From NCBI GenBank assembly GCA_963815885.1, contig CAWFIM010000003.1:196234-260233 (forward strand): 64,000 nt of DNA. Reading direction: 5' to 3'. Position 1 is the first letter of the stretch. The number at the start of each line of letters is the position of its first letter. Under the pieces are notes generated by a model. That model was not told the DNA's origin and made no database searches. It saw nothing but the letters and a program-made list of their open reading frames with translations. A program made the translations under genes and the position numbers. Of this stretch, positions 22,802 to 27,628 are shown piece by piece. Origin of the DNA: an uncultured Solirubrobacterales bacterium. GTDB taxonomy: Bacteria > Actinomycetota > Thermoleophilia > Solirubrobacterales > 70-9.

Positions 22802-23758
22802 TCAGCGCTTGCTGAACTGAGGCCGCTTGCGGGCCTTCTTCAGCCCGGCCTTACGCCGCTCCTTGACCCGCGCGTCGCGGGTGAGGAAGCCGCGCCGCTT
22901 GAGGTCGCCGCGGAGCTCCGGGTCGATCTCAGTCAGCGCCCGGGCGATGCCGTGGCGGACCGCGCCGGCCTGGCCGCCGATGCCGCCACCGTGGACGCGG
23001 ATGCGGACGTCGACGTTGCCCTCGTAGCCGGAGACGACAAGCGGCTGGCGCGCCATCGTCTGGTGCAGGGGGCGCGGGAAGAACTCCTCGAGGCTGCGCT
23101 TGTTGACTTCGATCTTGCCCTTGCCGGGCAGCAGGGTGACGCGGGCGATCGAGCGCTTGCGTTTGCCGGTAGCGAGGTAGCGGGCGCCGCTCTCCATCTT
23201 CGCCGGAGCGCGGCCCGCCGTTCCGGCGGCCGGCTCGTGAGCCTCGGCCAGGGCGGCTTCGCGCCGCGCTTTCTCCTCTTCCTCGGCTTCCAGCCGGGCA
23301 CGCTCTTCCGCGCTCAGTGCCGGCGCCGCCGGCTCCACCGCGATCGGCTCCAGATCGGCGCCGGGGATGACGTCTTTCTTCTTCTCCGCCGCCTTCGGCT
23401 CCTCCGCGGCCGGCTCGGGAGCCTCCTCAACCTCGGCCTCCTCGGAAAGGGCGTCGGACTCCTCCACCGGAGCCTCCTCAACGGACTCGGACTCCGCGGC
23501 CGCCTCCTCTGCCACAGGCTCCTCGACGGCCTCGGACTCCGCCAGCTCAGATGCCTGCTCCTCGGCAGGCGACTCGGCCTCAGCCTCCGACGCCTCGACC
23601 GCCGGCTCCTCAGGCGCATCTGCCGCGGGTGGCGCGGCGGAGGGCTCCTCGCCCGCAGCTTGCGAGGACGAGGAGTCCTCTGCCGCGACAGGACCCGTGG
23701 GCTGATCCTCTGAGCCCTCGGCCGTCTCGTCGTCGCGTTTCGTCTCGTCGTCTGCCAT
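22802..23758 (-). CDS. rpsI: 30S ribosomal protein S9 with long acidic N-terminal extension (start uncertain; canonical-length alternative at 23197)
   Basis: The C-terminal 131 aa ([20 protein letters not shown]...[11 protein letters not shown]) form a complete S9. The in-frame upstream ATG at 23758 overlaps the rplM stop as ATGA and has GGAGA 7 nt upstream. Confidence 0.8.
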
Positions 23759-24189
23759 CAGTTCGTCTCCATCGGTTTCGGCTGCTGCGCCGCGTGCGGG
23801 TGATCGGGGCCAGCGTAGACCTTCAGCTTGGTCAGCTGCTGGCGGGCAAGGCGGTTGCGAGGCAGCATCCCCTTGACTGCCTTGCGGATCACTTCCTCGG
23901 GCCGGCGGTCGAGCATCTCCCCCAGCGTCCGTGACTTGATCCCACCGGGGTAGCCGCTGTGGCGCCAGTAGGTCTTCTGCGCCAGCTTGTCGCCGGTGAC
24001 GCGGATCTTCTCGGCGTTGACGACGACGACGAAGTCGCCGGTGTCGACGTGCGGCGTGTACTCGGGCTTGCGCTTGCCCCGCAGGACGTCGGCGATCTGG
24101 GTCGCCAGGCGGCCCAACGTCTTGCCCTCGGCATCGACGACATACCAGTCTCGCTGGCGGTTGGCTGGCGTGGCGACAAAGGTCTTCAT
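23758..24189 (-). CDS. rplM: 50S ribosomal protein L13
   Basis: [39 protein letters not shown]... is canonical L13. I chose the internal ATG at 24189. Confidence 0.95.
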
Positions 24190-24420
24190 CGTGCAAAAAC
24201 CGCGCGGGTCCTCCCACGCGGCCGGGAGGATCATAGCCATCCCGGCATCTATACTGCCGCGCCAGCAATGCCGAATCCCGTCCGGGCAACCGAGCGGGAG
24301 CGGAGGAACCGCAGGGACCAGGCAGGTCCCAGGGGCGAATCGAACGAAAACGTTCGTAGCGCATCTCTTTCAGCGCGAGCCCGACAGCTAACTCCGTAGG
24401 CGATCGAAAGAGAGGGCTGG

Positions 24421-25374
24421 TTGACGCGGAACAAGCTGAGCGCCCGGCGCGGTCTGGCTGGTTGGAAGGTCGTTCTGGCGGCGATCCTCGCGCTGCTCGC
24501 CGTCTTCCCCGGAGCCGCCGCCGCCGCGATCGCGACCGGCGGGGCCGGCACCCCCGGCGCCGCGCCGACGCCGAAGGGCAGCCCCACCGGTGCTGCTGAC
24601 CCGGCGCCGAGCGCCGGCGCGCTCACCCTGCTCTCGGCCGAGGCCAGCCCGCGCAAGAACTTCTTCTTCGGCTACCGCTATCCCCGCTTCGCCTTCGCGA
24701 TCGCCAGCACCCAGCCGCAGAACGACCTTCAGGTCAACGTCGTCAACTCGGCCGGCGAAGTCGTCCGCAGCTTCTTCCGCAACGACGTCGCGCCCGAAGC
24801 GCCGGTCTCGGTGCGCTGGGACGGCACCACCGCCGAAGGCCGCCCCGCCCGCAACGGCCGCTACACCTTCCAGGTGCTCGCCCAGGGCAACACCGCCGCC
24901 GCCCGGCGCGCCACCGCCTCGGTGACGGTGACCGCCGGCTTCGCCCTCTACGGCTACGCCTTTCCGATCCTCGGCGCTCACGAATTCGGCCTCGGCGCCG
25001 GTCGCTTCGGAGCCCCTCGCTCCGGTCACACCCATCAGGGCCAGGACGTGATGGCGGCCTGCGGCACCCCCCTCCTCGCCGCCCGCGGCGGCGTCGTCCA
25101 GTACGCGGGTTACGAGGGCAACGCCGGCAACTACATTGTCATCGACGGCAAGGGCACGCCGAACGACTTCATGTACGCGCATCTGGCCGAACCCTCGCCG
25201 CTGCAAGCGGGCGAAACCGTCCGCACCGGCCAGCCAATCGGCATCGTCGGCGACACCGGCGACGCCACCGCCTGCCACCTGCACTTCGAGATCTGGGGAC
25301 CGCCCGGCTGGTACGAGGGGGGCTCGCCCTTCGATCCGCTGCCGGAACTCGAAAAGTGGGACCGGTACAGCTGA
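24421..25374 (+). CDS. Secreted M23-family metallopeptidase with FlgD-Ig-like middle domain
   Basis: Signal/TM segment, then HTHQGQD (HxxxD) and CHLHFE (HxH). TTG start. Confidence 0.85.
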
Positions 25375-25401: not shown

Positions 25402-25809
25402 CTACACGAGACTGATGCGCAGCTGCGCGTGTGCCCGAGAGATCTGCTCGAAGTCGCTGTCCTGAGCGACGACCGGGAGCCCGTGCTCGACCGCGGTGGC
25501 TGCGATCAGGGCGTCGGTGAGCTTCACGGCGCGCTGGATGCCGGCAGCGCGACAATCGGCGACGAGTCGCGCCCAACTGACCATCACCGCTTCTGAGATC
25601 GGGATTGGGTCGGCGGTCCTGGCAAGGGCCAGGGTGTCGGCACGACGGGCCCGCGTGGTGTCATCGGCGGCACTCAGCACACCGAGCTGCAGCTCGCCGA
25701 TCGTCACCACCGAGACGGCGACACGATCGGGCAGCTCGCCCAGCGGTCGGCCGCTCTCGCGGGCGATGAAGACCGAGGTGTCGAGCAGCCCGGCGCTTGC
25801 CTCGCTCAA
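25402..25809 (-). CDS. vapC: PIN-domain toxin VapC
   Basis: LLDTSVFIA N-terminal acidic motif and ...VVAQDSDF. It overlaps the antitoxin gene by 4 nt. Confidence 0.85.
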   Translation of the reverse strand: MSEASAGLLDTSVFIARESGRPLGELPDRVAVSVVTIGELQLGVLSAADDTTRARRADTLALARTADPIPISEAVMVSWARLVADCRAAGIQRAVKLTDALIAATAVEHGLPVVAQDSDFEQISRAHAQLRISLV

Positions 25810-26057
25810 AGGTCTGCGAGGGTCTGGCCAGCGAGCTCGTCGAGCTCGGTCTGCAGGGCAGGGTCGGCGGCGCGCTCGCGCAATTGCTCGCGAAGCTGCT
25901 CGCCGGCAAGCCAGCGGGCGCGCTGGCCATGGGGCACGATGTCGGCGGCCGGCTCGCCGTTGACGGTGAGGACAACCCGTTCGCCGGCACGGACGGCGTC
26001 GATCACGCGAGCGGTTCGGTTGCGCAGATCACGGACTCCGATCTCCATGTGCGACAC
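25806..26057 (-). CDS. Phd/YefM-type antitoxin partner of VapC
   Basis: IGVRDLRNRTARVIDAVRAGERVVLTVNGEPAADIVP is a typical Phd/YefM N-terminus. Confidence 0.75.
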   Translation of the reverse strand: MSHMEIGVRDLRNRTARVIDAVRAGERVVLTVNGEPAADIVPHGQRARWLAGEQLREQLRERAADPALQTELDELAGQTLADL

Positions 26058-26095
26058 AGTAGCACCATTTGCCGCTAGGCTCCGGCGACGCCGCA

Positions 26096-26214
26096 GAGGG
26101 TAGGCCGGGCATCCTCCTCACTCGGTACCTCGTCGCTGAGAAGTGTGGCTGCTGACGCCTCTTCGAGCTCCTCCTCCTCCGCAAAACGTTCGCAGGAATG
26201 CCCGGCCTACCCTC
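26096..26214. repeat. Structured element copy 1 (119 nt, 17-bp perfect terminal stem)
   Basis: 26096-26112 gagggtaggccgggcat pairs perfectly with 26198-26214 atgcccggcctaccctc. The interior carries ctcggtacctcgtcg and ctcctcctccgcaaaacgttcgcagg. Confidence 0.8.
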
Positions 26215-26271
26215 GACAGTGATCAGGGACCGCAGGGGCCTCGCGCTTTGTCCATTAGCTGGCCCGGACTC

Positions 26272-26395
26272 GGGGAGGGGGCCGGTGGTGCCTGCGAGCG
26301 TTTTGCGGAGGAGGAGAACAGCGGCCCGAGGCGCCAGCTCTACCCGGCTTCATCGACGAGGTACCGAGCGAGCAGGCACCACCGGCCCCCTCCCC
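26272..26395. repeat. Structured element copy 2 (124 nt, 24-bp perfect terminal stem), inverted relative to copy 1
   Basis: 26272-26295 ggggagggggccggtggtgcctgc pairs perfectly with 26372-26395. The interior carries cgacgaggtaccgag (26354-26368) and cctgcgagcgttttgcggaggaggag (26291-26316), which are reverse complements of the copy-1 motifs. Confidence 0.8.
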
Positions 26396-26405
26396 CCGCC
26401 CATGC

Positions 26406-26849
26406 TCAGCCCGCGCACCCCTCGCAGCGTCCCCGCAGCACCACGTCGTGCTCGGCAACCTCGAAATCGATGCTCTCCGAGAGCCGGCCGATCGCCTGCT
26501 CGAGGCGCGGGTCCTCGAACAGGACCATACGGCCGCAATCGCGGCAGATCGCGTGGTGGTGATGGTGGCCGTCGGGCTCGACCCGCTCGTAGCCGGCAGT
26601 GCCGCGGCTGACTTCGATCCGCTGCACCAGGCCCAGCTCCTCGAGCTGCTCGAGCGCCCGGTAGACGCTGGCCCGGCCGACCGGCGGCCGGCGGCGGCGC
26701 AGCTCGTCGTCGAGGTCGAGGGCGGTGACCGCGCAGTCATGGCGCGCCAGCGCCTCGATCACCGCCACCCGGGCGCCACCGCGGCGCAGCCCGGCGCTCC
26801 CGAGCGCATCCAGCGCGTGGTCCCGCCAGCCGGCGTCGATCGTGCTCAT
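26406..26849 (-). CDS. zur: Fur-family metalloregulator, probably Zur
   Basis: Winged-helix N-terminus, a His run (GHHHHHAICRDCG) and a C-terminal CEGC. It is divergent from a ZIP transporter gene. Confidence 0.75.
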   Translation of the reverse strand: MSTIDAGWRDHALDALGSAGLRRGGARVAVIEALARHDCAVTALDLDDELRRRRPPVGRASVYRALEQLEELGLVQRIEVSRGTAGYERVEPDGHHHHHAICRDCGRMVLFEDPRLEQAIGRLSESIDFEVAEHDVVLRGRCEGCAG

Positions 26850-26873
26850 GCCGAAATCGTACCGGGTTTAAAC

Positions 26874-26886
26874 GAGATTGAATCTC
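26874..26886. promoter_or_regulatory. Candidate Zur/Fur operator
   Basis: AT-rich palindrome GAGATT-G-AATCTC in the 59-bp divergent zur/ZIP intergenic region. Confidence 0.35.
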
Positions 26887-26908
26887 ATTCAGTGATAGCC
26901 TCCGCGCC

Positions 26909-27628
26909 GTGTCGTTGATCGCGATCCCGCTCTCCGCCCTCGCCGCCCTGGCGACGATGCTGGGTGGGAAGGTCGCGCTGCGCCTCTCCCACACGCTGCC
27001 GACCGTGATCGCCTTCACCGGCGGCGTCGTCGTTGCGGTGGCGCTGTTCGACGTGCTGCCGGAGGGGATCACGAACGTCGGCGACCCGGCGAAGGCAACG
27101 ACGCTGGTCGCGATCGGCTTTCTCGTCTTCTTCTTCGCCGAGCGCGTCCTCGTCCTCCACCACCGCGACCAGCCCGACGAGGCACGCGCACACCACCGGG
27201 TCGGCATTCTCGGCGCGCTCGGGCTCTCGATCCATAGCTTCATCGACGGGCTCGGGATCGGCCTCGCCTTCGGCCTCGACAGCGCCACCGGCCTGCTCGT
27301 CTTCGTCGCCGTGATCAGCCACGACTTCGCCGACGGCCTCAACACCGTCAGCTTCGTCCTCAACCAATCCGGGGATCGTGAGCAGGCGGGTAGATGGCTG
27401 CGGATCGACGCCCTGGCGCCGATATTGGGGGCGGTGGTCGGCTCGCTGCTGACCGTCTCCGACCACACCCTTGGCTACATCCTCTGCCTCTACAGCGGCT
27501 TCTTCATCTACATGGGTGCAACCGACCTGCTGCCCGAGGCCCACGCCGACGCTTCTTGGGCCCGAGTCGCCCTGACCGCCTCCGGTTTCGCACTGATCTT
27601 CGTGATCACCCGCGTCGCCGGCGTCTGA
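26909..27628 (+). CDS. ZIP-family divalent metal transporter
   Basis: 239-aa polytopic protein with HSFIDGLGIG and SHDFADGLN motifs. GTG start. Confidence 0.8.
   Translation: MSLIAIPLSALAALATMLGGKVALRLSHTLPTVIAFTGGVVVAVALFDVLPEGITNVGDPAKATTLVAIGFLVFFFAERVLVLHHRDQPDEARAHHRVGILGALGLSIHSFIDGLGIGLAFGLDSATGLLVFVAVISHDFADGLNTVSFVLNQSGDREQAGRWLRIDALAPILGAVVGSLLTVSDHTLGYILCLYSGFFIYMGATDLLPEAHADASWARVALTASGFALIFVITRVAGV

Follow-up and report, generated by a model that had tools for sequence, protein, structure and literature searches.

A 64,000-nucleotide stretch of DNA from an uncultured Solirubrobacterales bacterium (contig CAWFIM010000003.1 of assembly GCA_963815885.1, positions 196,234 to 260,233; the whole stretch is called the window) carries two hairpin-forming elements in inverted orientation between a zur-like gene and a toxin-antitoxin module. 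Their interiors are alike and their long terminal stems differ in sequence, yet each stem is perfectly paired. The locus therefore raises the question of what kind of element this is and what keeps its stems paired. We found that the two copies belong to a lineage-specific, undescribed family of palindromic repeats of ~125-135 bp in soil Solirubrobacterales. The account we favour, with little better than even confidence, is that they form one conserved inverted pair of an old family in which the two stem arms are copied from each other and in which copies behind genes act as stable 3'-end hairpins.

Both elements lie exactly where the original prediction, made from the letters of the window, had placed them, and the arms of their 17-bp and 24-bp stems are 100% complementary (Table 1). 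The window has no other perfect inverted repeat that measures 17 bp or more and encloses a loop of up to 140 nt. The shared interior blocks were found as well. The 15-nt block CTCGGTACCTCGTCG and the 23-nt block CTCCTCCGCAAAACGNTCGCAGG each occur exactly twice in the window, on opposite strands, which is far above expectation (0.01 occurrences for the 23-nt block). When up to two mismatches were allowed, CTCGGTACCTCGTCG gave four matches in the window against a shuffle mean of 0.29, and none of 100 shuffles reached four. Pairwise alignment of the two copies, one of them reverse-complemented, gave 81% column identity. On the minus strand the G-rich sense of copy 1 reads …GAACGTTTTGCGGAGGAGGAG…CGACGAGGTACCGAGTGA…, while the zur mRNA, transcribed from the same strand, carries the C-rich sense of copy 2. 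Both strands of both elements fold at -53 to -84 kcal/mol, with z-scores of -4.8 to -7.4 against shuffled sequences.

The two copies are not alone. One genome per species was scanned with the pattern TTTTGCGGAGGAG-N25-55-GACGAGGTACC, and the matching loci were fetched and numbered L001-L063. Besides the window, 27 metagenome-assembled genomes (MAGs) contributed to a total of 87 exact-core copies at 63 loci, nearly all under the label Solirubrobacterales or Thermoleophilia, and at least 10-12 copies were counted in individual genomes. With the same pattern we found 67 further copies in 51 soil and rhizosphere contigs from metagenomes and no match in viral contigs. A covariance model (R1) was then built from 84 copies. 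The original prediction had proposed a covariance-model search, and in the fetched loci the model recovered additional diverged partner copies, decayed ones among them at 30-76 bits. Within the window it detected no further copy, the next-best match reaching only 19.9 bits. The elements are copies of a repeated palindrome and not a simple duplicated spacer. A scan against Rfam 15 (E up to 10) returned only noise; the best match, to mir-641, scored 23 bits against a threshold of 100 (E = 0.26) and reflects a generic hairpin. We searched the literature and found no such element described for this bacterial group.

In the G-rich sense a copy reads, in order, 5' arm, GA, AC, GTTTTGCGGAGGAGGAG, a variable stretch, GGCGNCAGC, another variable stretch, TCGACGAGGTACCGA, GT, GA and 3' arm. 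The loop is ~76 nt long (73-79 nt) and contains three near-invariant blocks, GAACGTTTTGCGGAGGAGGAG, GGCGNCAGC and TCGACGAGGTACCGAGTGA; the whole unit spans 119-135 nt. Stems of 17-32 bp (median 24 bp) enclose it, with 97% Watson-Crick pairs, and all 67 arms in the metagenome set are distinct. Conservation within the stem is confined to the loop-proximal positions (…CCCTCC/GGAGGG…) and a small number of G-C pairs farther out. The other positions are free, with up to four pair types each, and no two copies have the same outermost base pairs. The helix extends over a tandem G·A motif to the pair A31-U106, which is replaced by G-C in four copies, copy 2 of the window among them. RNAalifold, when applied to the loop columns, proposed no pair that varies in the G-rich sense and predicted no structure at all in the C-rich one. 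In the latter sense the loop contains 37.6% C and 26.8% G, with ~18 YC dimers per loop.

A small protein gene was considered and rejected. The core lengths of 62-68 nt do not keep to multiples of three, and the conserved blocks stand in different frames in the two window copies. Cores of 66 nt were found only in copies within coding regions. A search with the 45-aa translated insert gave no match.

We next turn to the stems. The alignment of 84 copies contains double changes in 24 of the 25 stem pairs (493 cells), and none of 500 shuffles reached the observed values. Stem cells are paired in 96% of cases and in 46-48% when the partner column is slid, and one-sided changes are almost absent. 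The observation that the stems differ between the window copies and still pair therefore extends to the family. Such a pattern is what a cis-acting structured RNA would produce, be it a terminator, a processing site or an RNase III substrate, whose stem is kept by selection on RNA folding and shows true covariation. The strength of the covariation speaks for it, as do the change of A31-U106 to G-C across the tandem G·A motif, the conserved loop blocks, stems that evolve more slowly than synonymous sites, and a tight placement after stop codons with an orientation set by the adjacent gene, both described below.

However, the details of the pairing fit this explanation poorly. G·U pairs are as rare in the stems as A·C mismatches, with 21 against 22 in the genome set and 20 against 12 in the independent metagenome set, i.e. 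~1% each, and the scarcity of one-sided changes also stands against RNA-level selection. The interior has no supported structure in either sense, both senses occur inside coding regions, and Rfam holds no matching family. Moreover, the loop has been flipped at an orthologous site and the stems have absorbed coding flank. The flip was observed at the downstream of two sites in nuoG, where seven species share the same flanks and arms and carry the loop one way in four cases and inverted in three; among the 12 orthologues typed there, three are inverted. In L001 and L002 a 30-bp stem extends into the nuoG coding flank CTCGG(G/C)AC (Leu-Gly-Thr), and the opposite arm is an exact inverted copy of this flank, which tracks even the synonymous GGG/GGC difference between the two species. 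CTCGG(G/C)AC is ancestral nuoG sequence, as it lies outside the hairpin in L049, which has a different hairpin at this place. Similarly, at the nuoJ 3' end the GGGAGAC of empty sites forms part of one arm, and its complement stands in the other arm.

Arm-to-arm copying, inverted capture of the flank and inversion of the loop together point to intra-strand template switching, a process shown to create and maintain hairpins (PMC8794818). In such a quasi-palindrome correction the arms would copy each other, so that both arms could be altered in one step, and the same process could draw flanking sequence into the stem as an inverted copy and flip the loop. From these patterns we infer that stem pairing has probably been kept perfect and extended by DNA template switching between the arms, and not by selection at the RNA level. 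The original prediction had read the compensatory changes as selection on structure. The double changes themselves are real, but they cannot serve as proof of RNA selection in view of the missing G·U excess, the loop flip, the captured flank and the lack of interior RNA structure. We regard a structured RNA with true covariation as an unlikely explanation of the family.

Copies inside genes show how the element behaves as DNA. The nuo operon contains in-frame copies at three places, namely the two nuoG sites and the nuoJ 3' end. The upstream nuoG copy adds a segment of ~43 residues relative to the solved NuoG of M. smegmatis (8e9g_G), with region 413-473 of the query aligning to chain residues 445-462. 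In-frame copies were also found in the linker of a LysRS-LPG synthase (lysX-like) gene and in fbiC, where the insertion separates the CofG half from the CofH half. Inside coding regions the two orientations are almost balanced, with 11 copies in the G-rich and 10 in the C-rich sense. Occupancy of these sites varies. The nuoJ/nuoK junction of 13 species was found empty, filled, with a stem-only remnant or with a hairpin that has a different loop. At the upstream nuoG site, four species have a copy and three have none. In this the in-gene copies behave as tolerated, once-mobile DNA, close to the palindromic elements of Rickettsia.

A classical miniature inverted-repeat transposable element (MITE), i.e. 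an insertion sequence shortened by deletion whose terminal inverted repeats are recognised by a transposase acting in trans, would likewise be short, present in many copies, palindromic and mostly intergenic, and its presence would differ between species as it does here. We looked for a direct target-site duplication in the flanks of the copies and by comparing filled with empty sites at nuoJ and upstream nuoG, and none was found. The termini differ in every copy, near-identical copies within a genome are lacking, and there is no transposase among 42 adjacent genes and no match in viral contigs. A classical MITE is thus very improbable. The original prediction had named target-site duplications as the sign of a MITE, and many copies with identical terminal repeats and such duplications as the case that would speak against covarying helices. 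There are many copies, but their arms are not identical and the duplications are absent. Its more general option of a cruciform or MITE-like DNA element came close to the mark.

The family is old. For 70 of the 84 copies the nearest relative lies in another genome, i.e. it is an orthologue, and the best match within a genome reaches only 81% identity in the variable parts. Stems of random copies are ~60% identical. Local inverted duplication was tried as the origin of the pairs and rejected, as the partners are no more alike than random copies. Since the nearest relatives are elsewhere and pair partners are no closer than random, the family has not undergone a recent burst, and the pairs did not arise by local duplication in recent times.

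Outside coding regions, the placement of the copies is strict. Genes in the fetched loci were called crudely from codon-position G+C, and the calls reproduce the known genes of the window. When a stop codon lies at most 45 nt upstream of a copy, the mRNA sense is the C-rich one in 43 cases versus 2 in the genomes and in 41 versus 1 in the metagenomes. The stem starts at a median of +12 nt from the stop codon (range -1 to 35, n=71), and 60 of the 71 starts fall between +4 and +19. For comparison, intrinsic terminators are found at +10 to +20 from the stop codon (RNIE paper, PMC3152330). Orientation follows the adjacent gene, not replication.

Most intergenic copies are paired, with 28 pairs in the genomes and the window and 15 in the metagenomes. 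On whichever strand a pair is read, the C-rich copy comes first, then the spacer and then the G-rich copy, without exception (28/28 and 15/15; 44/44 when the overlapping L042 copies are counted). Most pairs occupy the gap between convergent genes. When the genes are co-directional the order is just as strict, and the second copy ends ~29-41 nt before the next start codon; in several cases this gap after the G-sense copy contains a -10 box for a leaderless mRNA. Spacers outside the window vary in sequence and, in length, between ~40 and 180 nt (net of arms), and they are rich in AGCT and GAAGCT. GAAGCT/AGCTTC was found in 17 of 28 spacers and AGCTTCC in 12, often near the stem end, as in the window spacer (26215-26271) and at L030 2643-2735. 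A spacer promoter for divergent small RNAs was considered and rejected, given that no -10-like box stands at a fixed distance from the stems and that the promoter scan returned 0 sites.

The same data bear on a further possibility, that the family is purely selfish or neutral palindromic DNA like the Rickettsia elements. Its placement would then reflect tolerated insertions, and the G-rich sense, with its Shine-Dalgarno-like GGAGGAGGAG, would have been purged from untranslated mRNA. This explanation accounts well for the in-frame insertions in nuoG (at two sites), nuoJ, the lysX-like gene and fbiC, for the gain, loss, remnant and replaced states at the nuoJ/nuoK junction, for the decayed partner copies, and for the existence of several sister families of the same architecture. 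It accounts less well for the strict pair order, which holds even between co-directional genes (44/44, of which 43 are tabulated), and for the narrow range of distances to the stop codon. The loop blocks are also better conserved across species than the neighbouring proteins, which share 74-79% amino-acid identity, and positions are conserved across species without a recent burst. We therefore find purely selfish or neutral DNA a rather doubtful explanation for the family.

The reading that we prefer joins arm copying with a role behind genes. Copies persist at two sorts of site, either behind stop codons, with the C-rich strand in the mRNA sense and usually as pairs between transcription units, or in frame in permissive loops and linkers of proteins. 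Those behind genes would form very stable hairpins at 3' ends, where they would terminate or insulate transcription or block 3' exonucleases. Placement and orientation suggest, to a weak to moderate degree, that the C-rich orientation behind genes has been retained for such a predicted role. The C content of the loop and its ~18 YC dimers are a composition that would suit Rho, and the loop may be read by a trans-acting factor of this kind. The G-rich orientation, by contrast, may be selected against in untranslated mRNA, where the GGAGGAGGAG it carries could trap ribosomes.

Several observations weigh against this reading. We found no U-tract after the stems, and the 3' flanks of C-sense copies are not T-rich; mycobacterial RNA polymerase requires a U-tract at intrinsic terminators (PMC3993855). 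Copies in the middle of nuoG and fbiC cannot be terminators, and from them the family as a whole behaves as tolerated selfish DNA. The conservation of the loop is in part an ascertainment effect because the search pattern fixed 24 loop positions. As to the arm copying, the stems of nuoG orthologues have a mean pairwise difference of 0.22-0.28 against 0.44 at synonymous sites, so that some selection on the stem is possible, and the lack of a G·U excess would also be expected if both RNA senses must fold.

Among known systems, the Rickettsia palindromic elements (RPE) are the closest in behaviour. They too are old palindromes of ~100-150 bp inherited at orthologous positions, they have neither terminal repeats common to all copies nor target-site duplications, and they often lie in frame in housekeeping genes of unrelated kinds, so that their translation adds peptide loops to the proteins (PMC10969869). 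The likeness is one of behaviour only, as our family belongs to another phylum (Actinomycetota, Thermoleophilia) and has no known sequence relationship to RPE, whose families are confined to Rickettsia. It also differs in being mostly intergenic, with one orientation after stop codons and inverted pairs of fixed order, and in having perfect copy-specific stems around an almost invariant loop.

The REP, BIME and REPIN elements of proteobacteria resemble it in being extragenic palindromes behind genes and between convergent genes, often as inverted pairs with other motifs between them, and REP elements have been proposed as stabilisers of mRNA 3' ends and as insulators, as we propose here. However, REP units are imperfect palindromes of 20-40 nt with conserved sequence and linked to RAYT, whereas the unit studied here has ~125-135 bp with a 76-nt loop and a variable stem, and it is found within genes as well. 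Inspection of the fetched loci, to which the search was confined, showed no RAYT gene. The Correia (CREE) and ERIC MITEs, 100-160 bp in length, likewise form hairpins and are transcribed together with genes; their known roles are those of RNase III/RNase E sites, terminators or promoters, and inversion of the Correia element has been reported (PMC10969869). They have common terminal repeats and TA or other target duplications, whereas our family has distinct arms and an inverted copy of the flank instead. Of the features that define MITEs it shares the insertion polymorphism of a multi-copy element, but not the common termini and the target duplication.

TRIT of Mycobacterium is similar in that it occurs in many copies as a conserved palindrome of one lineage of high-G+C actinobacteria, sits tight at stop codons, is often bidirectional, and is conserved in a way that suggests a factor (PMC3152330). 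It is, however, a short hairpin with a conserved stem that overlaps the coding end at about -8 (PMC3152330), whereas the present element has ~130 nt, a conserved loop and a free stem, starts at ~+12 and also occurs inside genes. With intrinsic terminators in general it shares the position after the stop codon, but not the U-tract. Quasi-palindrome template switching offers the closest parallel for the stems, as a single event overwrites one arm with the reverse complement of its partner and thereby yields apparent compensatory changes and new or longer stems (PMC8794818). It is a mutational mechanism and not an element family, and in our family it would operate again and again on dispersed copies that keep a conserved loop. 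An integron attC site, which has conserved R''/L'' and L'/R' boxes at its ends around a variable centre and stands in co-directional cassette arrays, was considered and rejected, since the present element shows the opposite pattern of variable ends and a conserved centre, and its neighbours are housekeeping genes, often convergent. What sets the family apart is the combination of a conserved loop, a free, perfect and partly flank-derived stem, loop flipping and a fixed pair order.

Coming back to the window, the history of the locus could be read from relatives. Orthologues of Zur in L024, L025, L045 and L051 (74-79% identity) have a copy right behind the stop codon. L051, L025 and L024 carry the full pair between an M23 peptidase gene and zur, with the partner copy directly after the M23 stop codon, and L045 carries a single copy between the two genes. 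The toxin-antitoxin module is absent from the orthologous intervals of all four, as judged by alignment of the intervals. The window has a 656-bp toxin-antitoxin module and its promoter region between the M23 stop codon (25374) and copy 1, and the residual flank beside copy 1 is still similar to the M23-side gap of L024. Comparison of these intervals indicates that the M23 peptidase gene is the ancestral convergent neighbour of zur. As the pair is present in relatives that do not have the module, it is older than the insertion of the module in the window lineage.

Copy 1 ends 38 nt upstream of the GTG start codon of the antitoxin, and this position had led to the suggestion that the elements regulate the toxin-antitoxin operon or form its leader. 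Because the pair is older than the module, dedicated control of this kind is unlikely. Not only is the module missing in the four genomes that keep the pair or a copy, but ~38-41 nt is the usual distance between a G-sense copy and the next gene elsewhere, a gap that can hold the -10 box of a leaderless mRNA, and no toxin or antitoxin domain was found in the other 41 adjacent genes. We consider regulation of the toxin-antitoxin operon extremely improbable. The antitoxin gene had been labelled vapB. An antitoxin gene it is, and it overlaps the gene of a PIN toxin that is VapC-like (PF01850), but the antitoxin itself is of the Phd/YefM type (PF02604).

The terminator-like position that had been suggested for the elements stood for copy 2, whose end lies 10 nt from the zur stop codon. 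A terminator scan of window positions 25950-26950 returned 0 sites. In the reading we prefer, copy 2 would serve the 3' end of zur, and copy 1 would have been a 3' element for the M23 peptidase gene before insertion of the toxin-antitoxin module separated the two.

Table 1. Coordinates of the elements, their neighbours in the window and sites of the sister families. Locations without a locus number are window positions.
Feature	Location	Strand	Remarks
Element copy 1	26096..26214	minus (G-rich sense)	M23-peptidase-side copy; covariance model R1 111.1 bits, full model length; repeat finder and pairwise alignment
Outer arm of copy 1, GAGGGTAGGCCGGGCAT	26096..26112		pairs with 26198-26214; 17/17 complementary
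Partner arm of copy 1, ATGCCCGGCCTACCCTC	26198..26214		17/17 complementary to 26096-26112
Spacer between window copies	26215..26271		57 nt; includes TTAGCTGG
Element copy 2	26272..26395	plus (G-rich sense)	covariance model R1 132.6 bits
Outer arm of copy 2, GGGGAGGGGGCCGGTGGTGCCTGC	26272..26295		pairs with 26372-26395; 24/24 complementary
Partner arm of copy 2	26372..26395		24/24 complementary to 26272-26295
zur-like gene, FUR family	26406..26849	minus	Pfam PF01475, E = 4e-25; 3' end abuts copy 2
Toxin-antitoxin module	25402..26057	minus	antitoxin 25806-26057 and PIN toxin 25402-25809; outside the element
M23 peptidase gene	24421..25374	plus	Pfam PF01551; 76% identical to L051 orthologue
Second family sites	L006 5910-6054, 6698-6850; L018 7483-7638, 7756-7904; L030 442-590; L063 1117-1248		
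Third family sites	L010 3514-3636; L041 4913-5024; L058 6726-6846; L059 283-396		
Fourth family sites	L011 1954-2012; L023 5332-5393; L047 1087-1148; L059 2371-2427		

The family offers a natural case in which textbook compensatory changes in a stem are better explained by template switching in DNA than by selection on RNA, and it is a warning for the discovery of RNAs by covariation in repeat-rich genomes. It adds an undescribed RPE-like or REP-like family to abundant uncultured soil actinobacteria, with some copies apparently translated in subunits of complex I. Strict placement and loop conservation make it a concrete candidate for ending or insulating transcription units in high-G+C bacteria that do so without U-tract terminators.

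One may go further and suppose that the family and its several sister families form a distinct class of 'self-stemming' repeats, in which the ~76-nt loop would be the heritable, functional or mobile unit, the stem would arise by inverted duplication of the flank, the loop could flip, and a dedicated factor would read the loop and end or insulate transcription without a U-tract. If true, this would show repeats making their own hairpins by a novel route and would add a novel type of terminator module that is specified by sequence. We put it forward as a speculation that is less probable than not by a wide measure.

There is also a practical side. The loci L005 and L060, which come from the same MAG (DASUMA01), have an identical upstream flank and 5' arm, and their sequences part within the element. 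The repeat is a probable cause of breaks and chimeras in short-read MAG assemblies, as at these loci, and at least this one pair of contigs is broken or chimeric inside a copy.

The fetched loci contain further hairpin families of the same plan (Table 1). A second family has perfect copy-specific stems of 20-32 bp that end in …CGCGGGAAT/ATTCCCGCG… and a conserved loop of ~91 nt, which occurs in both orientations; its copies often form inverted pairs. The loop of the third family is ~72 nt long and conserved (…AACTTTTTCG…CGAAAAAGT…), and that of the fourth measures 22-29 nt (GAGAACGGAC…CCCGCA); variable perfect stems enclose both. Another type of hairpin, with the loop CCGGACACTCAGCGC…, was observed at L049 5069-5183, which is the downstream nuoG site, and at L002 3047-3124 in the nuoJ/nuoK junction. 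Both sites hold the family studied here in other species. Sites with such alternative hairpins may be hot spots, or else a palindrome may be able to exchange its loop.

Finally, we noted some features of the window next to the elements. The zur gene is divergent from the gene of a ZIP zinc transporter, and between the two lies a perfect 13-bp palindrome, GAGATTGAATCTC (~26878-26890), a probable Zur box. In L006 and L030 a palindrome of similar kind, GAGAATGAGTCTCATTCTC, stands next to the element, with a -10-like TAGGGT after it. The reading frame of the ribosomal protein S9 (22802-24364, minus strand) has an apparent N-terminal extension of ~190 residues that is acidic and rich in Ala, Glu and Pro. 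Weak matches to the covariance model, which involve only the stem, were observed in the S9 region at 23444-23553 and 23627-23693.

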